Assembly: GCA_044359955.1 (NCBI GenBank)
Contig: JBIKLF010000014.1
Span: forward strand, 41-64,040
DNA length: 64,000 nucleotides
Reading direction: 5' to 3'
Source of the DNA: Chthoniobacterales bacterium
GTDB taxonomy: Bacteria > Verrucomicrobiota > Verrucomicrobiia > Chthoniobacterales > JACTMZ01
Part shown: piece by piece, positions 32,251-49,401 of the stretch
How the letters are laid out: each line of letters starts with the position of its first letter
Position numbering within the stretch: the first letter of the stretch is position 1
Position numbers and translations under genes: made by a program
The notes under the pieces: model-generated
Told to the model about the DNA's origin: nothing
The model's input: the letters and a program-made list of their open reading frames with translations, nothing else
The model's database searches: none

Positions 32251-32571
32251 TCAGGACAATCGAGGGGGTTGATCGATGGACGCGACCAGCGCAACGTGCG
32301 CAGCGAGACTTTCCGCACACAGCGAGGCAACCGACTCCGCCACGGTCAGCACGAAGACCGCTCCGGCCAGCGCGGGGGCATGATCATGCGAAGTGCAGCC
32401 GTGGTCGTGCTTCGGCCCGCCATCCTCATGGTCGGAGTGTCCGTGGGTATGGGCGACACACTCGGAGTGCGCCGCGATCTCCCAATGCTCATAAGCGTGA
32501 ATCCCTTGCGCCACGGCCAGCAACGCCAGGCCGACCAGCCACAGAATACGGAAACAACGCAACCCCGACAT
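32251..32571 (-). CDS. Small His/Cys-rich membrane protein upstream of the efflux operon
   Basis: 106 aa. One N-terminal helix, then HAYEHWEIAAHSECVAHTHGHSDHEDGGPKHDHGCTSHDHAP. I recognise no family. Confidence 0.6.
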   Translation of the reverse strand: MSGLRCFRILWLVGLALLAVAQGIHAYEHWEIAAHSECVAHTHGHSDHEDGGPKHDHGCTSHDHAPALAGAVFVLTVAESVASLCAESLAAHVALVASIDQPPRLS

Positions 32572-32700
32572 GACGCCGAAACTAAGCGGCCACTCTCCCG
32601 AGTCAAGGCCTCACCTTTTTTTTCGCCGTCACCACCCTCCGCTCTCCCGCCAAGGCCTCCCCCAGCCCGAGCACCTCGCGACGCTTAACGCCATCGCCAT

Positions 32701-32861
32701 CACCCAGATGCGCACCCTGCCGCATCGGAAGATTTCACTCTTCCTATTTCACTCTTCACTCCTCTTGCCGCCCGCCAATCTCCCTGACCGGGAAACTCTT
32801 GCGCTTATGACAACCTTCGTTCGTGCCTCCGGCACGGCGTTTGCTGTAAGTTCGCCGCGCC
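32701..32861 (+). repeat. hsdM-type leader repeat, copy A (93-bp conserved core 32769..32861, hairpin 32822..32836)
   Basis: Colinear with 34033..34195 and 35743..35901. It ends exactly at an ATG (32862). Confidence 0.85.
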
Positions 32862-32930
32862 ATGCCGAGACGCCCCACTGTCCAGAAAACACGAGTGACT
32901 CCTACGGCCTTCGCGAGCATCCTCAGCTGA
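32862..32930 (+). pseudogene. Diverged hsdM 5' remnant (22 codons)
   Basis: MPRRPTVQKTRVTPTAF aligns at nucleotide level with the hsdM-like start at 34196 (MPKRSTAKTKAADSTA). A stop follows after 22 codons. Confidence 0.4.
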
Positions 32931-32946: not shown

Positions 32947-34014
32947 ATGAGCCAGAAGAAGTCCACCCCCGGCGGTCGCGCCAAGAAGAAGGCCGAAGTC
33001 TCGCTCGTCCGCTCGTCGGCAGCGGAATACCTCACCTTTGTGGCGGCCAGCGGACAGGGCGGCGTCGAAGCCGTTTACGCCGATGAAAACGTCTGGCTCA
33101 GCCAGAAAATGATGGGGGTGCTTTACGCGGTGGAAACCCACACGGTGAACTACCACCTCAAAAAGGTCTTCGCGGACAATGAGTTGCAGGAGGATTCAGT
33201 TATTCGAAATTTTCGAATAACTGCCGCCGACGGCAAAACCTACGACACCGGGCACTACAACCTCTCTGGCATCATCGCCGTCGGCTACAAGGTGAACTCG
33301 GAGCGCGCCGTGCAGTTCCGTAAGTGGGCCACTGGTATCATCGAGTCCTTCACCATCAAGGGCTATGCGATGGATGACGAGCGCCTGAAAAATGACGGCT
33401 CCATCCTTGGCAAAAAATACTTCGAGGAACAGCTCCAGCGCATCCGGGAAATCCGCCTGAGCGAGCGGAAGTTCTACCAGAAAATTACCGACATTTACTC
33501 GACCGCCATCGACTACGATGTGACTGCCGCCGCCACAAAACGGTTCTTCGCCACCGTGCAGAACAAGCTGCATTGGGCCATCCACGGCCAGACGGCGGCA
33601 GAGGTCATTCTTTCCCGCGCCGATGCCACCAAAGAACGCATGGGTCTCACCACCTGGAAGGACGCGCCCACGGGGAAAATCCAGAAGTTCGATGTTGTCG
33701 TCGCGAAAAACTACCTGACGGAAAACGAAATGGCGCAACTGCAACGCCTCGTCTCCGCCTACCTCGATGTGGCTGAAGACATGGCGCTGCGGCAGATTCC
33801 CATGACCATGCAGGACTGGGAAACCCGCCTCAATCGCTTCATCGCCGCGACCGACCGGGAAATTTTGCAAGATGCTGGCAAGGTCACGGCCGAGATCGCC
33901 CAGGCCCACGCCGAGAGCGAGTTTGAGAAATACCGTATCGTGCAGGACCGCCTCTTCGAGTCCGACTTCGACCGGATGATCAAGCAATTACCGAATGCAG
34001 GAAATCAGCCATGA
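32947..34014 (+). CDS. RhuM-family protein (Virulence_RhuM; frequent passenger of type I R-M loci)
   Basis: 355 aa. YADENVWLSQKMMGVLY, NLSGIIAVGYKVNSERAVQFRKWAT, GYAMDDERLKN, KFYQKITDIY, YLTENEM..L.RLVSAYLDVAE. Confidence 0.9.
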   Translation: MSQKKSTPGGRAKKKAEVSLVRSSAAEYLTFVAASGQGGVEAVYADENVWLSQKMMGVLYAVETHTVNYHLKKVFADNELQEDSVIRNFRITAADGKTYDTGHYNLSGIIAVGYKVNSERAVQFRKWATGIIESFTIKGYAMDDERLKNDGSILGKKYFEEQLQRIREIRLSERKFYQKITDIYSTAIDYDVTAAATKRFFATVQNKLHWAIHGQTAAEVILSRADATKERMGLTTWKDAPTGKIQKFDVVVAKNYLTENEMAQLQRLVSAYLDVAEDMALRQIPMTMQDWETRLNRFIAATDREILQDAGKVTAEIAQAHAESEFEKYRIVQDRLFESDFDRMIKQLPNAGNQP

Positions 34015-34032: not shown

Positions 34033-34195
34033 TTGAATACCCTTCTCCCCCCATCAAAAATTCATCATCCAACATTCAAAATTAAGCATTCCCCACGCTT
34101 TTCGGACGCCAAACTCCCTGCCCCGGAAACAGTTGCGCCTATGACAACCTTCGTTCGTGCCTCGGGCACGCCTTTTGCTGTATTTTCCCCGCGCG
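34033..34195 (+). repeat. hsdM-type leader repeat, copy B (core 34103..34195, hairpin 34156..34170)
   Basis: See copy A. It ends at ATG 34196, which opens an HsdM-like N-terminus. Confidence 0.85.
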
Positions 34196-34318
34196 ATGCC
34201 CAAACGCTCCACCGCCAAGACCAAAGCCGCCGACTCCACCGCCAATCTCGGCTTTGAGGCGAACAAGGTCTCCCTCGAACTCGTCACCTGGCTCGTCATC
34301 CAGAAGGACAATTTATGA
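34196..34318 (+). pseudogene. hsdM: hsdM 5' remnant (type I R-M methyltransferase N-terminus, 40 codons)
   Basis: MPKRSTAKTKAADSTANLGFEA reproduces the usual HsdM start (..LGFEA..LW.AAD), then diverges and stops. The stop overlaps the next ATG (ATGA). Confidence 0.6.
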
Positions 34319-34575
34319 GCAACGCAAAACGTAGCACCATCGAGGTCCAGGGAACCTCCATCGCTATTCTTTCTCATGAGCGCCAGGACTTCCTTTCGAA
34401 GATGAGCATCGCCTACAAGGAGGCCCGCGAAACCCACCACTGGCTCCGGTTGCTTCGTGATTCCGACATTCTGGACAACCGGCAAGCCGGTTCAGTGATC
34501 GAAGACTGCGCAGAACTTCTGAAGCTCTCCGGTTCCATCATCCGAACGACCAAATCGAACATTCCTAATTCGTAA
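34315..34575 (+). pseudogene. In-frame fusion of a KilA-N gene 5' fragment (26 codons) with the C-terminal half of a four-helix-bundle (23S rRNA IVS-type) gene
   Basis: MSNAKRSTIEVQGTSIAILSHERQDF is the N-terminus of R-M-associated KilA-N proteins. LSKMSIAYKEARETHHWLRLLRDS... is the second half of the four-helix-bundle family. Confidence 0.6.
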
Positions 34576-34581
34576 TTCAAA

Positions 34582-35718
34582 ATGAAGCCGACGCCAACAG
34601 CGCCTGACTACACCAACTTCCTCACCGAGGTGAAGGGCCGGATCCAGACCGCGCGCCTGCAGGCCAGCCGGGCTGTGAACCGGGAGTTGGTGATGCTGTA
34701 TTGGGACATCGGACGCGGGATTGTGGAACGCCAACAGCGCCTTGGCTGGGGTGATGCGGTGGTGGAGCGTTTCGCCGCTGACCTGCGAGTGGAGTTTCCG
34801 GACATGCAGGGCTTCTCTCCGGCAAATGTGTGGCGAATGCGGCAATGCTTCGAGGCGTATTCCGGTCCTGAATTTCTCGCACAGGCTGTGCGAGAATTGG
34901 GTCCGGTTCCCGTTGGGATGGCGCGGGATCAGTTTCTCGCACAAGCTGTGCGAGAATTGGTGGCTGCGGTTCCGTGGGGACATCACGTTTTCCTGCTGGG
35001 CAAAATCAAGGAACCACAGGGCATGTTCTACTACCTCCGCGCCACGGCGCAATTCGGCTGGAGCCGGCGCGTGTTGTTGAACCAGATCAAAGATCAGGCG
35101 TATGAGCGGGCGGTGAAGGAGAAGAAGACGCACAATTTCGAACTGGCGCTGCCGGAGCATTTCGCCGGGCAGGCGGACGAGATGCTCAAGAGCCGCTACA
35201 ACCTCGAGTTTCTCGGAATCGCCCGACCGATGAAGGAGCTGGAACTGGAGGAGCGGCTGATTTCCCGGCTCCAACAGTTCATCATGGAGCTGGGATACGG
35301 CTTCTGTTTCGTGGGCCGGCAATACCGGCTGGCACTGGGGAAGAAGGAATACTTCGTGGACCTGTTGTTTTACCATCGTTTCCTCAAGGCGCTGGTGGCG
35401 TTTGATCTCAAGATCGGCGAGTTTGAGCCGGAGCACGCGGGCAAGATGGATTTCTATTTGAACCTGCTGAACGAGAAGGAACGCGGACCGGATGACCGGC
35501 CATCGATCGGCGTCATCCTGTGCGCGGAGAAGGATGACGTGGAGGTTGAATACGCTCTGAAGACCAAGGCGAACCCGATCGGCGTGGCGGAGTATGTCCT
35601 TTCAGAGAAGTTGCCATCCGAATTCAAGGGCAAGCTGCCAACCGCCAGGCAACTCGCAGATGTGGCGAGAGAATTCCTGCCTGCGCCGAGAAAGACTGCC
35701 AAGAAGAAGAAATCATGA
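34582..35718 (+). CDS. DUF1016 / YhcG-family PD-(D/E)XK nuclease-like protein
   Basis: 378 aa. LVMLYWDIGRGI, VPWGHHVFLL, YNLEFLG, GYGFCFVGRQYRL....YFVDLLFYHRFLKALVAFDLKIGEF.PEHAGKMDFYLN. It contains a 20-codon internal tandem duplication. Confidence 0.9.
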   Translation: MKPTPTAPDYTNFLTEVKGRIQTARLQASRAVNRELVMLYWDIGRGIVERQQRLGWGDAVVERFAADLRVEFPDMQGFSPANVWRMRQCFEAYSGPEFLAQAVRELGPVPVGMARDQFLAQAVRELVAAVPWGHHVFLLGKIKEPQGMFYYLRATAQFGWSRRVLLNQIKDQAYERAVKEKKTHNFELALPEHFAGQADEMLKSRYNLEFLGIARPMKELELEERLISRLQQFIMELGYGFCFVGRQYRLALGKKEYFVDLLFYHRFLKALVAFDLKIGEFEPEHAGKMDFYLNLLNEKERGPDDRPSIGVILCAEKDDVEVEYALKTKANPIGVAEYVLSEKLPSEFKGKLPTARQLADVAREFLPAPRKTAKKKKS

Positions 35719-35742
35719 GTAAGCCCGGAGAGCACAGAACTT

Positions 35743-35901
35743 CACCCGAATGCGCACCCTGCTCGCCGCCAACCAAGGAAAACGCCTGAAATAGCGCCCC
35801 CCACCTTTCGCCCGCCAAACTCCCTGCCCCGGAAACACTTGCGCCTATGACAACCTTCGTTCGTGCCAGCGGCACGCCTCTTGCTGTAATTTCCCCGCGC
35901 G
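35743..35901 (+). repeat. hsdM-type leader repeat, copy C (core 35809..35901, hairpin 35862..35876)
   Basis: See copy A. It ends at the ATG of the GIY-YIG gene (35902). Confidence 0.85.
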
Positions 35902-36753
35902 ATGAACAAACCGTATTCGATCAAGATTTTTCTCCCCGCGGGAGATCCTGAAGGAATCCGCACCATCGAGAAATCAAACTGGACCGGCGCGGGAATTGTC
36001 ATCCCCCGTGCTTTGATGAGCGAAGCCAAGAACCGTCGCGAACTCGCGCGCACTGGCGTGTATGTGCTGATTGGACCGCCCGAGGAATCCGGTTTATCGC
36101 GGGTCTATGTCGGCGAAGGCGACCCGATCAAACCCCGGCTGGAACAGCACGCCGCGAAGAAAGATTTTTGGACCAGCTGCATCGCCTTCACGAGCAAAGA
36201 CGAGAACCTGAACAAGGCTCACGTGCAGTATATCGAATCACGCTTGATCACCTTGGCCGCGCAAGCCAAGCGGTGTGTTTTAGACAATGGAAATGCGCCC
36301 GCTTTGCCGTCGCTCTCGGATGCCGATGGAGCGGACGCGGAAGGGTTCCTTTCGGAAATCATGCTCTGCTTTCCGGTGCTGGGTCTCACCGTGTTCACCG
36401 CCGCCGCTCCGATTCAGAAGAGTGCCAAGCTCCTGTTCATCTCGGCCAAAGGCATCAAAGCTGAAGGCATGGAGACGCATGATGGCTTCGTCGTCCGCAC
36501 GGGCAGCGGCGCGGTCAAAAGTGAAGTCCCGTCGTGTCACGCCTACTTGAAGGAGCTTCGCGCCGCCTTGATTTCCAACGGGGTTCTGAAGCCGACGTCA
36601 GACGGCTATGCTTTCGCCCAAGACTACGTTTTCCCATCACCATCCACTGCCGCGGGAGTCGTGCAGGGACGCGCCGCCAATGGCCGCGTGGACTGGAAGA
36701 CGAAAGACGGCAAAACGCTCAAAGACCTGCAGGAGGCCAAAGCAAAAGAATGA
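35902..36753 (+). CDS. GIY-YIG nuclease-family protein with C-terminal DUF4357 domain
   Basis: 283 aa. [32 protein letters not shown]...[27 protein letters not shown], and a C-terminal [21 protein letters not shown] block. Confidence 0.88.
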
Positions 36754-37190
36754 GCGACCACCACATTTCCCTCACCGACATGCGCAAAGCCAAGGACAGC
36801 CACTTTTCTAATTACGACTGGCTGTGCAAGCGCAACACCGTCGAATTCCTCGGCTTATGGGAGACTGTCTACAACCCAGATTTTAATTCCGGCGAATTCG
36901 CCATAATTGGAAGTCAGGAGGGGCTGAACAACTACAAACTCAGCGTCAAGCAATGGGTTAAAAAGACCAACGACATCCGCCGCGCCCTCGTTGAGGCCGA
37001 CCTCGTGGACACTGCTTTGCGCGATAGCGCATTTCATCAAAGTAAATCCACTCCGCAGGTCCTGAGCGAAGCGAAGAGCAACATGGTCGCCCTCCCGGGT
37101 CAGCTCTTCTACAGCACGCAGATCCCCGTCTGCCTCTGGTTTATTGGGAAAAATGGAAACGCTGGCGGTTCAACTTTCGGCCTCAACTAA
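36750..37190 (+). pseudogene. Chimeric remnant ORF: KilA-N middle part + HsdM C-terminal scraps
   Basis: Residues 6-76 ([10 protein letters not shown]...[18 protein letters not shown]...[10 protein letters not shown]) continue the KilA-N fragment at 34315. Residues 77-87 ([11 protein letters not shown]) and 112-131 ([20 protein letters not shown]) are HsdM motifs. ATGA overlap with the GIY-YIG gene. The stop lies 2 nt before the SIR2 gene. Confidence 0.65.
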
Positions 37191-37192
37191 TT

Positions 37193-38221
37193 ATGCCGTC
37201 CTCAACCGACTCATTCAGTTCCCGCCTCGAAGCGAAAGTTGCCCAACAACTCAATTCGCAACGCGTCGGCTATTTGTTGGGAGCGGGGGCATCGTATCTC
37301 GGTGGGTGCGGATACCCGCTTGCGGGGAAACTCTGGGACTGCATTGCGCCGAAACTGCCGAAGACCGAGCGCGACGAGATTCAAGCAAAGCTCGACGGTG
37401 GCGCTGATGGCATCGAAAACGCGCTTGATTTGCTCGACGATGGTTCGGCCATTGAAAAGCCGCATCGGCATCGCGTCACAGAGGCAATCGCCACCCATTT
37501 CCATTCGATTTCGCCGCCGATTGACGTTCACCAAACTTTTGTTCGCAGGCTCGCCGCAAGGGACGAGCTGAGCACGCCGGTTTTCTGCCTGAACTACGAT
37601 GGCCTGATTGAATTGGCCGCAGATGCAGAGCGGATACGCGTAGTGGATGGTTTCATCGGTCAGGAACGGCTGTTCTTCGACCCTGTGACTTATCAGGAGC
37701 GCACAGCCCTCTCCCACCGCGGACCACGAAAGCCCCAGGCTGATTGGCGGAAAGGAATCCTCCACCTCTACAAGCTGCACGGGTCACTTGGTTGGTTCCA
37801 TTTAGGTGGCACTGATGTGCGCCGTTTCGGCTTGGGTGCGAAAACTCCACCGAACGCGAAGCGCCTTATGGTGCCGCCTCAGCACCGCAAGACCATTGAC
37901 ACCACAGCGCATCCCTATTCGGCCCTCTGGTCAGACTTTCGTGGCCTCCTCTGCCAAGGACCAACCATGCTAAATCGCCTCGCCTGTGTCGGCTACGGGC
38001 TACGCGACGAACACCTGAATGCGGTGATTGAGAACGCGCTTGGAAGAAATGACTTCACCATGCTCGCCTTTGCCCACGCCCTCACCGACCAAGCGTTCAC
38101 TCGATGGAGCGCCAAGCGCAATGTTATCATCGTCACCGAAGATCGGTGCTCCCTCTACGGCGAAGTCGGCCCAGGGCATACCGCACTGTGGAATTTCGCG
38201 ACACTCACTCAAACCATCTGA
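37193..38221 (+). CDS. SIR2-like (SIR2_2) NADase-type defence protein
   Basis: 342 aa. GYLLGAGASY, FCLNYDGLIE, LYKLHGSLGWF. Directly upstream of a HerA-type ATPase. Confidence 0.88.
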   Translation: MPSSTDSFSSRLEAKVAQQLNSQRVGYLLGAGASYLGGCGYPLAGKLWDCIAPKLPKTERDEIQAKLDGGADGIENALDLLDDGSAIEKPHRHRVTEAIATHFHSISPPIDVHQTFVRRLAARDELSTPVFCLNYDGLIELAADAERIRVVDGFIGQERLFFDPVTYQERTALSHRGPRKPQADWRKGILHLYKLHGSLGWFHLGGTDVRRFGLGAKTPPNAKRLMVPPQHRKTIDTTAHPYSALWSDFRGLLCQGPTMLNRLACVGYGLRDEHLNAVIENALGRNDFTMLAFAHALTDQAFTRWSAKRNVIIVTEDRCSLYGEVGPGHTALWNFATLTQTI

Positions 38222-38227
38222 ACATCC

Positions 38228-39919
38228 ATGAGCACATCAACCGGAACACTGATCGGCCACGTCATCGACGTTCGAGGCGATGGATTGACCGCCAATCTTT
38301 TGGCCGACGAGCAAGACGCGGCTCCGAAGATCACCGTCGGCGACGAGGATGTCTTGGTCGGACAACTCGGCTCGTATGTATCGGTTCGGCAAGGCTCAGT
38401 TCGGATTCTTTGCGTCGTCACGCGGGTTTCAGAACTAGAGAAGTTGGCCGATACAAACAACGCATCACCCGACGCGCCAGTCGTCACCTACGCACAGCGG
38501 GCCATCGCACTAATTCCAATCGGCAGCGTGTCAGTCGAAGGCGAGTTTGAACGTGGCGTCAGCAGCTATCCCACAACCGGGGCTGAGGTGCATGTTGTGG
38601 CGGGCAACGAACTGGGCACGATGTTCAGTAAATTTAGAGCGCAGGGCTATGTGGTTGGAAACCTGTCTTCACAGCCTTCCGTTAAGGTCTGCCTTGAGCC
38701 GTCACGTCTTTTCGGGCGCCACTTCGCAATCCTCGGCCAAACTGGAGCAGGCAAATCTTGGGCCGTTGCAAGTCTCATCCAGCAGGCGCTCGCCGTCATG
38801 CCAAAGGCTCACATCATCATCTTGGATCTGCACGGCGAGTATTGCTGGCTTAAACCGGATGGGGAACGAGACGCCGCCTTCAAGGAAGAACATTTTCGAT
38901 ACGTCGATGCCAAAGAATTGGAGATGCCATATTGGCTCATGACTTATTCCGAGCTTTGCGACCTGTTGATCGATCACTCGGAACGGGAGGCCGCAAATCA
39001 AACAGCGTTCTTCAGAGACACTCTCTTTGATTTGAAGCAAGCTGAGAAGAACTCGCTCGGCTTAGACCGAGTCACGATTGATACGCCGGTGTATTTTTCT
39101 TTGGAAGAACTACTTCGACAAACAACCGACAAGAATACTGAGCGCTCACGCAACCCAGAAACTAATCGAATGAATAATGGGCCTTTGTATGGGACTTTTG
39201 ACCGATTTCTAATACGCCTTCAAAGCAAGCTCAATGACGTTCGATACGACTTCCTGTTGAAGCCCCAAAAAAGGACGACATCCGCTTCGCTTGCGGAACT
39301 TCTCCGAGATTTCGTTGGTTTGGGTGACCCCAAGCGGCCCGTGACCGTAATTGACCTCAGCACGGTTCCATTTGATGTTAGGCCAACAGTTGCGGCCCAG
39401 ATTGGGCGGCTCGCATTCGAGTTCAATTTTTGGAACCCGCAATACCGGGAGCTTCCGCTGCTGCTTGTCTGTGAGGAGGCCCACGCCTACGTCAAGCGGC
39501 AACATGACTCCCAATTTGCCGGTGCCCGGAAGTCCATGGAAAGAATCGCCAAAGAAGGGCGCAAATACGGCGTTGGTTTGGCGGTGGTGAGCCAACGACC
39601 CCACGAGCTCTCTGAGACGGTTCTTGCGCAATGCGGCACGTTCCTATGTCTCCGCATTACCAACCCCGACGACCAGTCATACGTGAAAAGCCTCGTGCCG
39701 GAGGGTGAGCGCGGCTTGGTGGACATTCTCGCTGGCTTGGGAAGAGGCGAGTGCTTGGCGCTTGGGGAGGCAGTTCCGCTGCCGACGCGCTTCAAGTTCA
39801 ACAAGCCCGCACCATTCCCGAACAGCGAGGACATAGACTTTTACAACAAATGGAAAGACGGCCCAGATGACATCGATGTCGAGAGCATCGTTGACCGTTG
39901 GAGAAAGCAACAGAGATAG
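38228..39919 (+). CDS. HerA/DUF87-type hexameric ATPase (partner of SIR2)
   Basis: 563 aa. N-terminal HAS-barrel-like IGHVIDVRGD...VGQLGSYVSV, Walker A AILGQTGAGKSWA, Walker B-like LLLVCEEAHAYV, VSQRP. Confidence 0.9.
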   Translation: MSTSTGTLIGHVIDVRGDGLTANLLADEQDAAPKITVGDEDVLVGQLGSYVSVRQGSVRILCVVTRVSELEKLADTNNASPDAPVVTYAQRAIALIPIGSVSVEGEFERGVSSYPTTGAEVHVVAGNELGTMFSKFRAQGYVVGNLSSQPSVKVCLEPSRLFGRHFAILGQTGAGKSWAVASLIQQALAVMPKAHIIILDLHGEYCWLKPDGERDAAFKEEHFRYVDAKELEMPYWLMTYSELCDLLIDHSEREAANQTAFFRDTLFDLKQAEKNSLGLDRVTIDTPVYFSLEELLRQTTDKNTERSRNPETNRMNNGPLYGTFDRFLIRLQSKLNDVRYDFLLKPQKRTTSASLAELLRDFVGLGDPKRPVTVIDLSTVPFDVRPTVAAQIGRLAFEFNFWNPQYRELPLLLVCEEAHAYVKRQHDSQFAGARKSMERIAKEGRKYGVGLAVVSQRPHELSETVLAQCGTFLCLRITNPDDQSYVKSLVPEGERGLVDILAGLGRGECLALGEAVPLPTRFKFNKPAPFPNSEDIDFYNKWKDGPDDIDVESIVDRWRKQQR

Positions 39920-39934
39920 ACTGTTTGTGATGAA

Positions 39935-40945
39935 ATGAAACATAAGCCACTTAATCAAAGCCTTAGCGCCGCTAAGGCGACCAAGCAGGATGAGTTTTAC
40001 ACTCAGCTTTCGGATATCGAAAAGGAACTCCGTCATTACACGAAGCACTTCAATGGCAAGACCGTCTTGTGCAACTGCGATGACCCACGCGTCAGCAACT
40101 TCTTCCACTACTTCTCCCACAATTTTGAGAAGCTAAAGCTAAAGAAACTCATCACCACCTGCTACAAGAACCAAGACGTCGACCTCTTCAGCACCCACAA
40201 GGCAGAACGCGGGGTCTATCTCGAATACAACGGCGACAAAGACGGCAACCGTGTCCCAGACCCGGCAGAGATCGGCGTCCATCCCTTTAAGGGTGATGGC
40301 GATTTCCGCAGCGAGGAATGTATCGCGCTACTCAAGCAAGCCGACATCGTGGTCACCAATCCTCCGTTCTCGCTGTTTAGGGAATATGTCCAGCAGCTCC
40401 TTAAGTATGGCAAAAAGTTTCTTATCATCGGCAACCAAGGCGCGATTAGTTACAGAGAGATTTTTGAAGCTATTAAACGAAACGAGATGTGGCTCGGATA
40501 TACTCATCCCGTCGCGTTTGTTGTTCCAGACCATTATGAGATGCGCGAGGTTAGAAGCTGGCGCGACGAAAGTGGCACGAACTGGCGGAGTTTAGGAAAT
40601 GCCTGTTGGTTCACTAACCTGGATATCCAAAAGCGACACGAAGAGCTGGTTGCTATTAAGCCATATGATCCACTCTCACACCCGCACTATGACAACTACA
40701 ACGCCGTCGAAGTTTCCAGATACAAGGATATACCAACCAATTACGACGGCGTGATGGGCGTGCCTGTAACTTTTCTTGAGTATTACAATCCAGAGCAGTT
40801 CGAGATTGTCGGGTCGGATTACGAAGTGCGGCAGGGCCAGTTGCCTGAAATTCTAAAGGGAGGATGGAACGGAAAGATTGACCGCGGATACGTCAAAGGG
40901 AAGCGGCTGTTCGCGCGAATACTCATACGCCGAAAGACCAAATAG
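39935..40945 (+). CDS. EcoRI_methylase-family N6-adenine DNA methyltransferase
   Basis: 336 aa. AKATKQDEFYT, GKTVLCNCDDP, catalytic IVVTNPPFSLF. Confidence 0.85.
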   Translation: MKHKPLNQSLSAAKATKQDEFYTQLSDIEKELRHYTKHFNGKTVLCNCDDPRVSNFFHYFSHNFEKLKLKKLITTCYKNQDVDLFSTHKAERGVYLEYNGDKDGNRVPDPAEIGVHPFKGDGDFRSEECIALLKQADIVVTNPPFSLFREYVQQLLKYGKKFLIIGNQGAISYREIFEAIKRNEMWLGYTHPVAFVVPDHYEMREVRSWRDESGTNWRSLGNACWFTNLDIQKRHEELVAIKPYDPLSHPHYDNYNAVEVSRYKDIPTNYDGVMGVPVTFLEYYNPEQFEIVGSDYEVRQGQLPEILKGGWNGKIDRGYVKGKRLFARILIRRKTK

Positions 40946-42031
40946 ATGAAAATCGACCTAAACGAAATCAAAGTCAGGGAACTCTTTGAAGACTTCGAAG
41001 ACAATGCCGAGGCCGGTGTCGTCGGATTTGGCGGGAAGCTCGACATTCGTCCGCCCTACCAGCGCGAGTTTATTTACAAAGACAAGCAGCGCGACGCGGT
41101 GATTGACACGGTGCGGAAGAACTACCCGCTGAATGTGATGTATTGGGCGGTGCGGGAGGATGGAAAGTTGGAGGTGATTGACGGTCAGCAGCGCACGCTT
41201 TCGATCTGCCAATATGTGAACGGCGACTTTTCCATCGGCGGGCTGGCCTTTCACAACCTGCAGGACGACCAGCAACAGCAAATCCTCGACTACAAGCTGA
41301 TGGTCTATTTCTGCTCCGGCACGGATAGCGAGAAGCTGGAGTGGTTTAAGACGATCAACATCGCGGGAGAGGAATTGACCGCGCAGGAACTCCGTAATGC
41401 CGTCTATGCCGGGCCGTGGACGGCAGATGCGAAGCGATATTTCAGCAAGACAGGCTGCGCGGCCTATGGTCTGGGCAGCGACTACCTCAAGGGCAGCCCG
41501 ATCCGGCAGGAATATCTGGAGACGGCCATCGAGTGGCACGCAGCAGGCGAAACAATCGAGGACTACATGTCGAAGCACCAGCACGACGAGAATGCCGGTG
41601 AAATATGGCATTACTTCCAAAGCGTCATCGCGTGGGTGAAGGCGACGTTCCCAAAATATCGCAAGGAGATGAAGGGAGGTGACTGGGGCGGCCTCTACAA
41701 CAAGTTCAAAGGTGCAAAGGTGAACCCGGACACGCTGGAAAAGCAGGTCGCCAAGCTGATGATGGACGATGACGTGACGAAGAAATCGGGCATTTACCCG
41801 TATGTGCTGGACGGGAAGGAAAGCCACCTCAGCATCCGCGCCTTCACAGACAACAACAAACGTGAAGCGTATGAGCGGCAAAAAGGGAAATGTCCGGTCT
41901 GCAAAATGCACTTTGAGATCGAAGGCATGGAAGCCGACCACATCACGCCATGGCACGCGGGTGGGAAAACCATCGCAGCGAATTGCCAGATGCTCTGCAA
42001 AGACGACAATCGAAAGAAGTCGGGGATATAG
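40946..42031 (+). CDS. DUF262 (GmrSD N-terminal, ParB-like) domain fused to a C-terminal HNH endonuclease
   Basis: 361 aa. IRPPYQREFIY, VIDGQQRTLSI, C-terminal CPVCKMHF...ADHITPWHAGGKTIAANCQMLCKDDNRKKS. It starts on the nucleotide after the MTase stop. Confidence 0.88.
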   Translation: MKIDLNEIKVRELFEDFEDNAEAGVVGFGGKLDIRPPYQREFIYKDKQRDAVIDTVRKNYPLNVMYWAVREDGKLEVIDGQQRTLSICQYVNGDFSIGGLAFHNLQDDQQQQILDYKLMVYFCSGTDSEKLEWFKTINIAGEELTAQELRNAVYAGPWTADAKRYFSKTGCAAYGLGSDYLKGSPIRQEYLETAIEWHAAGETIEDYMSKHQHDENAGEIWHYFQSVIAWVKATFPKYRKEMKGGDWGGLYNKFKGAKVNPDTLEKQVAKLMMDDDVTKKSGIYPYVLDGKESHLSIRAFTDNNKREAYERQKGKCPVCKMHFEIEGMEADHITPWHAGGKTIAANCQMLCKDDNRKKSGI

Positions 42032-42282
42032 TCAGCGGCAAGAGTTTGCCCAATGCTAGCTTCATCGGCTTCACCCCCAAGCCAAAGGGGTCAGGCCTAT
42101 AATTTAAACATTCCCGATTCCTCTCGCGCGGTCAGCCCACCCCGGATGTCACGCCGCTGGGCGGAGGGGGCTGCCGGCACAACTACCAAGCCCGCAAAAC
42201 CGGCTAATTCCAAAGTATTGTTGTGCGATGGGAAGTTCTCGCCATTCTCCAGGACAAGCCACCACATTAATGCTCTTAAAAA

Positions 42283-44895: not shown

Positions 44896-45015
44896 GCCAG
44901 CGAAGCGAAAACAGACCGCAAAGTCTTAGCCTCCGCTAAGCCGTAACCATGCAAAAGCCGCGGCGATTGACGGGCTGCAGCAAAAGGCCATTGTGTTTCG
45001 ACTTTCGCTCAGCGG

Positions 45016-45082
45016 GTAGGGACGAGCGGCCCGCTCGTCCGCTCCCCAACCAACGGACGCGCGAGCCGCGCGACCCTCCCTA
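45016..45082. repeat. Paired-hairpin palindromic element, family 1, copy 2 (inside composite repeat ~44926..45135)
   Basis: GTAGGGACGAGCGGCCCGCTCGTCC GCTCCCCAACCAAC GGACGCGCGAGCCGCGCGACC..., nearly identical to 48994..49057. Confidence 0.85.
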
Positions 45083-45698
45083 AGTCTGCACATTCTAAGC
45101 CCGTCACGATCAGACCATACGGCCTCCGGTTCCGCTTTCCGGTCTCCATCTCCCCCTTCATCCTTCATCCTTCAAACTTCATCCTTCTCGTCCCGCCGTA
45201 GCCGTTCGCCTCGGCGAACGCAAAGGCGGATCCCCCCGTGCCCCCTGGACAAACCGATCCCAACCGCGTCCGGCACAACGTCATCTTCTTCCATCTTCTT
45301 CAATCCGTGGCCTGTCTCCTCCCCGGCTCCGGACTCCCCGCTCCTCCGCTCTTTCACAGCCACCACCACTCCTCCACGGCGCGCTCGTATCCCCGGCGCG
45401 CCGCGGCTCCCGGTGACCACTCGGCCAGGCTGGCGCCACCGCCTTGTGCCGGCCCCGGCGTTTTCCAACGCCCGGAGTCCGCTTTGGTTTCTTCGATTGC
45501 ATCTTCCTTTTTCCGCTCCGACCCACGTTTTGCTTCGTCATGCGTTTTCATCAGGCCAAGCAAACAACGATCACGCGCCCCCCGCGATAGGGAGTTCACC
45601 TGACCGTAGCCCTCCTCGCACACGGGGCATGCTCTATGGGCAATAGACCCCACAGATGCCCGTCGCCCCGTCATCCTATGCTCGCCGTTGTGAGTCCG

Positions 45699-48912: not shown

Positions 48913-48993
48913 CGCAGACAAAACCTTAAGCCTAACCATGCCGAAGCCGCGGCCATGGACAGGCTGTCGCCGAACGAAATGTTCGTTCAGCAG

Positions 48994-49057
48994 GTAGGGA
49001 CGAGCGGCCCGCTCGTCCGCTCCCCAACCAACGGACGCGATAGCCGCGCGTCCCTAC
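48994..49057. repeat. Paired-hairpin palindromic element, family 1, copy 3 (inside composite repeat ~48925..49125)
   Basis: GTAGGGACGAGCGGCCCGCTCGTCC GCTCCCCAACCAAC GGACGCGATAGCCGCGCGTCCCTAC. Confidence 0.85.
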
Positions 49058-49401
49058 CTAAGCCTGCAAATTCTGAGCCCGTCACGATCAGACAACACGG
49101 CCGGTAGGGCCGGGGCCTCCGGACCCGCCGCACGACTATGGATTCGTCGGCGGGGACGCCGACGCTGCAGGAACATGTAGCGGCGCCGTCCCCGGCGCCG
49201 AAGCACCCAGCGACGTCGCGCCCTGCCTTCACAGCGTATAGAGCCCCGCTTACTCCCCAACCACACCCGCCAAAGCGCGGGCTCAGGGACTCCCGCCTAC
49301 ATTAGGGGCGACGCCTTGGCCGACATCAACCGCCTCGCGCCGGACGCAATCATATCGAAGCAGCCGCACCGGCCATCGTGCCGCTGCCCGACGGCCGCTC
49401 C

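Follow-up and report, generated by a model that had tools for sequence, protein, structure and literature searches.

A gap-free six-ORF string in a Chthoniobacterales defence island is most probably a composite of separate modules accreted inside a decayed type I restriction–modification locus

Introduction

SIR2-HerA is a two-gene anti-phage system, in which a NADase complex is switched on by infection and nicotinamide adenine dinucleotide (NAD+) is depleted (PMC11472057, PMC11514289). Defence cassettes embedded in type I restriction–modification (R-M) loci have also been described already, and the RhuM, DUF1016, DUF4357 and KilA-N families have been catalogued as embedded in type I R-M, BREX or DISARM loci (bioRxiv 10.1101/2024.01.29.577857). 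Here we report on a string of six open reading frames (ORFs) in a 64,000-nucleotide (nt) stretch of DNA from a Chthoniobacterales bacterium (contig JBIKLF010000014.1, positions 41-64,040), in which a DUF4357 gene, a scrap ORF, a SIR2 gene, a HerA gene, an EcoRI-family DNA methyltransferase (MTase) gene and a DUF262-HNH nuclease gene follow one another head to tail. The whole stretch is called the window below, and all coordinates are window positions unless a relative is named.

In our analysis the six-ORF string is most probably a composite that accreted inside a decayed type I R-M locus, and not a single system. It would comprise four parts, namely the DUF4357 gene, which is a single-gene defence candidate (PDC-S14), a scrap of KilA-N and HsdM sequence, an autonomous SIR2-HerA module and an autonomous type II R-M module. 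The locus as a whole is a compact defence island of known modules, and as such an example of a known phenomenon.

Results

Layout of the string

All six ORFs are on the plus strand (Table 1), and the five junctions between them measure, in order, -4 (an ATGA overlap), 2, 6, 15 and 0 nt. These ORFs and minimal junctions had been listed in a preliminary description of this DNA; we recomputed them and all coordinates were identical. Tight same-strand junctions of this kind are the normal look of an operon, and the pattern is statistically not unusual.

SIR2-HerA and the R-M pair are not neighbours elsewhere

The preliminary description had proposed that SIR2-HerA and the methylase/nuclease pair form a fixed module, imported as a single four-gene cassette. 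We therefore surveyed the relatives of the string from both sides. For the SIR2 side, 14 SIR2 homologues (the 13 others being 54-92% identical to the window SIR2) were aligned as the query, and the sample comprised 80 loci, one genome per species, with SIR2 proteins 47-93% identical. HerA followed SIR2 in 78 of the 80, the remaining two loci being cut or rearranged; this agrees with the literature and with the earlier view of SIR2-HerA as a self-sufficient two-gene system. No relative of the MTase or the nuclease was found within 10 kb in any of the 80 loci, at E<=1e-5 and even at E<=1, and 70 of them have at least 2.2 kb 3′ of HerA, which is enough to reveal the pair. The genes 3′ of HerA varied from locus to locus (IrrE/M78-HTH, Metallophos of the SbcD-like kind, a NERD nuclease, a 2021-amino-acid (aa) DUF4011 helicase-nuclease, unknowns, or no same-strand ORF), and some of these other post-HerA junctions were equally tight, at -22, -4, 0, 4 and 7 nt.

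The nuclease family is large: more than 8000 proteins were matched, and the top 120 were at least 76% identical to the window nuclease. The sample taken from this side consisted of 80 metagenome loci with nucleases 66-80% identical. An EcoRI-family MTase lay directly 5′ of the nuclease in 71 of the 71 assessable loci, the other nine having at most 746 nt of 5′ sequence, and plasmid annotations from four phyla (Firmicutes, Bacteroidota, Proteobacteria and Actinobacteria) also include the MTase/nuclease pair. SIR2 was present in none of the 80 loci, and the sole HerA match was a weak one (28%, opposite strand, in L149); in 27 loci there were at least 2.8 kb 5′ of the MTase, sufficient to reveal SIR2-HerA. 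Seen from either side, the four genes were neighbours in 0 of 80 loci, the very outcome that the preliminary description had named as speaking against a fixed module.

Each pair has its own homology boundaries

The closest relatives carry each pair alone. Nuclease P0248, which belongs to the 90% cluster of the window nuclease, has only its MTase alongside, between 6-phosphogluconate dehydrogenase and unrelated genes, and the surroundings of a nuclease with 90% identity (P0121) are again unrelated. In the case of P0133 (84%; L172 1592-13113), the R-M pair lies in another defence island, beside type III R-M-like genes (N6_N4_Mtase and ResIII/RE_endonuc, with DUF4391), and on the other side of that pair are an OLD-TOPRIM ATPase and a UvrD helicase, which by their domain content look like Gabija. 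SIR2 P0265, from the 90% cluster of the window SIR2, stands in the order KilA-N, DUF1016, hsdM scrap, SIR2, HerA, followed by an unrelated ORF of 628-651 aa and without the R-M pair.

At the DNA level, the window aligned with the locus L006 (CAMAUZ010000087.1) over 36974-37010 and 37082-39919 at 86% identity, and the alignment ended at the HerA stop codon. With another SIR2-HerA locus, L007, it aligned over 37190-39912, beginning 3 nt 5′ of the SIR2 ATG. The R-M relatives aligned over 39929-42034 only, beginning 6 nt 5′ of the MTase start. Since the first set of homology blocks ends at the HerA stop and the other begins 6 nt before the MTase, the string contains two blocks of separate ancestry joined by 15 nt. 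To judge by these boundaries, the pairs would be two separately acquired two-gene cassettes, each trimmed to its ORFs, and the idea of one imported four-gene cassette has to be abandoned.

The junction between an hsdM relic and SIR2 in the window is shared by L006 and by the near-identical contigs L179-L182. The earlier proposal that the four genes had landed inside hsdM thus holds for SIR2-HerA, but not for the R-M pair, which is a block of its own. As for the insertion site of the R-M pair, the DNA of L006 3′ of HerA and the window DNA 3′ of the nuclease gene aligned no better than shuffled sequences. Planctomycete-type PSCyt/PSD1 genes were seen nearby in L179.

The SIR2-HerA pair and its affinity for type I R-M genes

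The SIR2 protein exceeded the cut-off of the Pfam SIR2_2 profile (31.9 against 24.5 bits). Its motifs GAGAS30-34, NYD134-136 and HGS196-198 are intact, and they are invariant in the 14 homologues. HerA has a Walker A motif, GQTGAGKS, and a probable Walker B, LLLVCEEAH. Both proteins failed the NCBIfam equivalog cut-offs, SIR2_antiphage with 63.7 bits versus 500 and HerA_antiphage_2 with 363 versus 850. The pair thus represents a divergent subclade with a short SIR2, its membership in the SIR2-HerA group being assigned by architecture and by the PADLOC models.

Several relatives of this pair lie behind type I R-M genes. In L026 (7424-12730), L028 (2680-7929) and L051 (7397-12724), SIR2-HerA comes a few nt after an hsdM-hsdS fusion gene, the order in L026 being hsdR, KilA-N, hsdMS, SIR2, HerA, and in L035, L042, L043 and L055 a short match to the C-terminal part of hsdM-hsdS was found directly 5′ of SIR2. 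When the tight upstream ORFs were scanned (n=27), nine contained Methylase_S (three of them fused to N6_Mtase) and one was HsdR. These neighbourhoods suggest that the affinity of the clade is for type I R-M operons generally, not for the EcoRI-family/DUF262-HNH pair.

We also noticed Metallophos (SbcD-like) genes flanking SIR2-HerA in L007 (2766-6748), L008 (12784-14046) and L011 (4982-6301), in one locus on its upstream side and in the other two downstream; in L007 an SMC-like gene stands beside the Metallophos gene. Metallophos may represent one more recurrent neighbour or defence module.

The methylase/nuclease pair

The MTase matched Pfam EcoRI_methylase with 434.9 bits (cut-off 26.4) and the PADLOC model MTase_II PDLC03297 over its full length (E 1e-124), and it has NPPF at residue 142. 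Taken together, the motifs and profiles of the two proteins and their conserved adjacency identify the MTase and the DUF262-HNH nuclease as a predicted type II R-M system. Sequence searches of solved structures with the MTase and with the nuclease gave no match, and a literature search for a named type II enzyme of DUF262-HNH architecture returned only material on the type IV enzymes GmrSD/BrxU.

The DUF4357 gene and the hsdM scrap

The first ORF matched Pfam DUF4357 with E 9e-20 and 70.8 bits (cut-off 38.4). The protein is, to our knowledge, an uncharacterised single-gene defence candidate (PDC-S14). The domain assignments of the preliminary description (DUF4357, SIR2, HerA, EcoRI-family MTase and DUF262-HNH) were recovered by profile searches, except for GIY-YIG in this first protein: the Pfam GIY-YIG domain was not found in it at E<=0.01, and the motifs GVY…YVG are visible by eye only.

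The second ORF is a chimera, in which an N-terminal fragment of KilA-N (~36750-36970) is fused to a fragment of the HsdM motif region (36975-37187). The hsdM remnant, of ~50 aa, corresponds to positions 209-234 of 311 in Pfam N6_Mtase; the fragment contains the motif that had been noticed earlier, as HsdM C-terminal, in the ORF upstream of SIR2. In the window and in L006 alike, the relic (…IRRAL(V/I)EAD…(V/I)CLWF…GLN*) stops 2 nt before the SIR2 ATG. In comparison with L006, the window relic has an in-frame insertion of 69 nt (23 codons) at 37011-37081, between …EADLVD and MVALPGQ…, and despite this insertion the ORF stays open to the SIR2 start. Intact hsdM, hsdS and hsdR are all missing in the window, where a search with an hsdMS query at E<=1 gave nothing but a chance match. 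Since there are no intact type I genes and the cargo belongs to embedded families, we interpret the island as what is left of a type I R-M locus that its embedded cargo has outlived.

The upstream island and its leaders

The string is the last part of an island of about 32.7-42.2 kb, with a GC content (GC) of 0.50-0.58 as compared to 0.624 for the whole window. Among the ORFs, GC is 0.575 for the DUF4357 gene and 0.577 for SIR2, and 0.495 for the MTase gene; only part of herA and the MTase gene are lower. By pairs, the values are 0.58/0.54 for SIR2/HerA versus 0.50/0.55 for MTase/nuclease. The stretch 37.2-42.0 kb had been singled out as AT-rich; its GC is indeed below that of the window, but the whole island is AT-richer, and the DUF4357 gene, which lies outside that stretch, equals SIR2.

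Table 1. Features of the six-ORF string and of the island upstream of it
Feature	Position	Strand	Basis
DUF4357 protein, PADLOC PDC-S14 (ORF1)	35902..36753	+	PDLC04923 E 6e-106, residues 1-282 of 283
Chimeric pseudogene scrap (ORF2)	36750..37190	+	PDC-S22/KilA-N and N6_Mtase partial matches; alignment to L006 KilA-N and L006 scrap
SIR2-family NADase gene (predicted), 342 aa	37193..38221	+	Pfam SIR2_2; PADLOC SIR2 PDLC04081 E 4e-32, residues 14-340
HerA ATPase	38228..39919	+	PADLOC HerA PDLC04105 E 4e-153; DUF87 E 9e-39 (DUF87/HerA_C)
EcoRI-family N6-adenine DNA methyltransferase, M half	39935..40945	+	Pfam EcoRI_methylase E 3e-130
DUF262 (DGQQR) + HNH nuclease, 361 aa, R half	40946..42031	+	PADLOC REase_II PDLC03418 E 8e-149, full length; GmrSD_N and HNH
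KilA-N C-terminus relic (…RQGLPQPEHLATLNAIAITQMRTL)	32552..32719	+	tblastn with L006 KilA-N protein, E 2.6e-7; blastn to L006, L026
Leader copy A	32755..32886	+	repeat family, alignment, pattern search
RhuM-family gene, PADLOC PDC-S05	32947..34014	+	Pfam Virulence_RhuM E 6e-107; PDC-S05 E 1e-150
Leader copy B, then short ORF MPKRSTAKTKAADSTANLGFEA…	34089..34220	+	repeat family, alignment
Four-helix-bundle protein, 23S rRNA IVP family	34315..34575	+	TIGR02436 E 3e-11; PF05635 on record
DUF1016/YhcG PDDEXK nuclease-family gene, PADLOC PDC-S02	34582..35718	+	profile searches
KilA-N C-terminus relic 2, degenerate (…FTRMRTLLAANQGKRLK*)	35672..35791	+	weak tblastn, E 0.27; blastn to L026
Leader copy C, sole non-coding DNA 5′ of the six-ORF string	35795..35901	+	repeat family, alignment, pattern search

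Three repeats of ~100-130 nt (32755-32886, 34089-34220 and 35795-35926), pairwise 83-89% identical and here called leaders A, B and C, precede in order the RhuM gene, the four-helix-bundle gene with DUF1016, and the six-ORF string. All of them contain the perfect palindrome CGTGCC-N3-GGCACG with differing loop bases, and in all of them an exact GGCACG-N4-TTGC is located ~17 nt 5′ of a conserved ATG, which fits the -24/-12 consensus of sigma-54. Leaders of this type may serve as promoters, as operators or as both, and leader C is the putative promoter/operator region of the string. The sigma-54 promoter is a lead only, as the motif with one mismatch occurs 11 times in the window versus 9.2 expected; furthermore, the three copies are mutual repeats and not independent matches, and GGCACG is also half of the palindrome. 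A structured RNA was rejected, with folding z-scores of -1.3, +1.1 and +0.9 and no Rfam match. We considered the ORF after leader B (…ANLGFEA…) as a possible HsdM N-terminus; this was left unconfirmed, since tblastn against plasmids was empty and four hsdM N-termini from the loci surveyed were dissimilar.

Pieces of KilA-N are scattered over the island, with C-terminal relics 5′ of leaders A and C and the N-terminal piece (36750-36970) that opens the scrap ORF. The first relic is directly 5′ of leader A and marks the left edge of the island. The second adjoins the 5′ side of leader C, and its terminal motif and position are as in the relic before leader A. This suggests that a unit of KilA-N and leader may have been repeatedly duplicated or recombined. 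Within the DUF1016 gene there is a direct repeat of 28 nt (34873-34900 and 34933-34960, spacing 60 nt, 96% identical), through which the peptide FLAQAVREL occurs twice in the N-terminal domain of the protein.

On its left the island borders a minus-strand efflux operon (AcrB, OEP), and on its right a gene for a DUF418 membrane protein with host-like GC. No tRNA or tmRNA was found in the window, and there was no Rfam match in the whole window at gathering thresholds, nor in 32.5-36.0 kb at E<=1. In a search for an island-free allele, the contigs with an identical DUF418 flank protein were either short or of the same arrangement. Two further observations concern the flanks. The efflux operon is headed by a His-rich ORF of 106 aa (…HTHGHSDHEDGGPKHDHGCTSHDH…; 32251-32571, minus strand), which by eye resembles a metal-binding accessory protein. 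To the right, a direct repeat of 121 nt, 91% identical (45004-45124 and 48982-49102), encloses genes for a PAS-GGDEF diguanylate cyclase and a histidine kinase and an unannotated ORF of ~230-240 aa (48.2-48.9 kb).

Transcription of the string

We lean towards co-transcription of at least the SIR2, HerA, MTase and nuclease genes. Among the R-M relatives, a same-strand ORF ended within 25 nt of the MTase start in just 2 of 47 assessable loci, while in the window 15 nt separate HerA from the MTase and 6-15 nt are left of the upstream DNA of the pair itself. Read-through is favoured because the junctions are as short as 0-15 nt and the R-M pair has lost its usual long upstream spacer. It could start from leader C or from promoters inside the upstream ORFs, and the result would be an operon by juxtaposition. 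A consensus scan detected no sigma-70-like site at 35.9-41.9 kb, although this consensus may not be that of the host, and the terminator-like hairpins found, at 36252, 37118, 39408 and 40748, were all weak. From the tight packing it had been argued that internal promoters would not fit into the string. This is a deduction from the layout rather than an observation; coding sequence can itself contain promoters.

Alternatively, the modules may be merely juxtaposed and transcribed independently, with promoters in the scrap ORF for SIR2 and in herA for the MTase, so that the packing has no regulatory meaning. Intragenic promoters are generally known to be common in R-M and defence loci, a sigma-70 consensus scan is uninformative for a host that is probably verrucomicrobial, and nowhere in the string is the AT content higher than in the MTase region and the 3′ half of herA. 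However, the herA 3′ end, which shares 86% identity with its counterpart in L006, a locus without R-M genes behind HerA, gives no hint of a new promoter. With this, the empty sigma-70 scan and the lost spacer of the R-M pair taken together, we regard independent transcription as unlikely.

Discussion

The evidence presented here argues for a composite, in which the gene order was reached in steps. SIR2-HerA would have been inserted behind a truncated hsdM, a state common to the window and L006, and a separate event would have attached the R-M pair, trimmed to its two ORFs, to the HerA stop codon. From what their families are known to do, the methylase would mark adenines of the host and the HNH nuclease would cut incoming DNA that is unmarked; a phage that escapes this layer might then trigger the HerA-SIR2 complex and NAD+ depletion, with the R-M and SIR2-HerA layers acting independently.

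Several points weigh against this reading or limit it. The survey covered 80 loci per side and may have missed the same four-gene set in some rare lineage. The identical four-gene arrangement recurs in several metagenome samples; this is not independent evidence, because the proteins are identical and come from the same population. A gain of the R-M pair in the lineage of the window and its loss and replacement in the lineage of L006 are both compatible with the data, as no homology survives 3′ of the modules. The blocking of the DUF262-HNH nuclease by methylation is a prediction, and co-transcription is deduced from the layout of the sequence.

A more far-reaching version of accretion may also be considered. 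The island could be an accretion platform, on which three diverged leaders, located after KilA-N 3′ relics, each drive a different captured defence gene, and on which promoter-less cassettes, SIR2-HerA and then the R-M pair, were trimmed exactly to their ORFs and stacked head to tail behind the last leader. We hold this to be quite unlikely. If it were true, a first-line R-M system and its abortive-infection backup would share one regulatory input, and layered immunity would have been assembled in an integron-like manner from what a type I R-M operon had left behind.

Somewhat less probable still is an island in decay, where the type I locus is already lost and some of the modules that survive have fallen silent or are turning into pseudogenes. 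The reduction of hsdM to a fragment of ~50 aa, the lack of any detected hsdS or hsdR relative in the window, the KilA-N relics and the chimeric scrap ORF would all fit such a process. On the other hand, all five real genes are full-length with respect to their profiles and have kept their catalytic motifs, and identical copies persist in several samples.

It is also conceivable that the pairs, once separately acquired, now cooperate, for instance when DNA ends made by the HNH nuclease feed HerA and through it SIR2, or when shared regulation gives synergy. The probable co-transcription of the two pairs is compatible with this, and the recurrence of the SIR2-HerA clade behind type I R-M genes (9 of 27 with Methylase_S, one HsdR) might hint at an affinity for R-M. 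That association, however, is with assorted type I R-M genes and never with the type II pair of the window, the majority of SIR2-HerA relatives lack any R-M neighbour, and many unrelated defence genes are also embedded in R-M loci, which makes such coupling very improbable. The possibility that SIR2-HerA and the R-M pair, or all six ORFs, are one integrated system carried by a single conserved cassette has, finally, next to no credibility: the gap-free same-strand order behind a single non-coding leader, the intactness of all four genes and the stability of the arrangement in several metagenome samples from one population would suit it, but the pairs co-occur in 0 of 80 loci from each side, members of the clusters at 90% identity or more carry each pair alone, one set of DNA homology blocks ends with the HerA stop codon while the other starts 6 nt ahead of the MTase ATG, and the pairs differ in GC.

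The composite reading carries a caution for annotation: gap-free, co-oriented packing is no proof of one system, since the modules are here delimited by the ends of their ORFs and circulate alone. The widespread short-SIR2 subclade, found repeatedly behind type I R-M genes, fits the concept of embedded defence and could be a starting point for work on the expression of such cassettes. The R-M pair, stripped of its own upstream region, offers a natural test case for the tolerance of foreign promoters.

Comparison with known systems

The SIR2 and HerA genes of the window resemble the SIR2-HerA system with known structures (from Paenibacillus sp. 453MF and others; PMC11472057, PMC11514289) in that the Rossmann motif and the catalytic N and H motifs are intact, a HerA-type ATPase with Walker A follows 6 nt after SIR2, and the PADLOC matches are full-length. 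They differ from the characterised systems in scoring far under the NCBIfam equivalog cut-offs and in the short SIR2 (342 aa), the activity of which is predicted; moreover, the window pair and several of its relatives directly follow type I R-M genes or relics.

The methylase/nuclease pair is similar to the type II R-M pair of PADLOC (MTase_II PDLC03297, REase_II PDLC03418), with M followed by R and the ORFs abutting or overlapping, as in the 71 assessable relatives and on many plasmids. In contrast to its relatives, whose upstream spacer usually measures hundreds of nt, the window pair keeps 15 nt on its 5′ side. The nuclease also resembles the type IV enzymes GmrSD/BrxU/SspE, which have an N-terminal DUF262/GmrSD_N domain with DGQQR and a C-terminal His-Me (HNH) domain (PMC12707154). 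It is shorter than these (361 aa), has the classical HNH (PF01844) instead of DUF1524, and belongs to a family that is always paired with a methylase. This constant pairing argues for an enzyme that is blocked by modification, as in type II systems, and not dependent on it.

In the case of embedded defence genes (PrrC in EcoPrrI, and the "guilt-by-embedding" PDC families of Payne et al., bioRxiv 10.1101/2024.01.29.577857), the likeness extends over the whole island, which has RhuM (PDC-S05), DUF1016 (PDC-S02), DUF4357 (PDC-S14) and a KilA-N fragment (PDC-S22), and in which SIR2-HerA stands behind an hsdM relic, as it stands behind hsdMS or hsdS in the relatives. The difference is that here the type I host system itself is gone, and what is left of it are an hsdM fragment and three copies of the leader.

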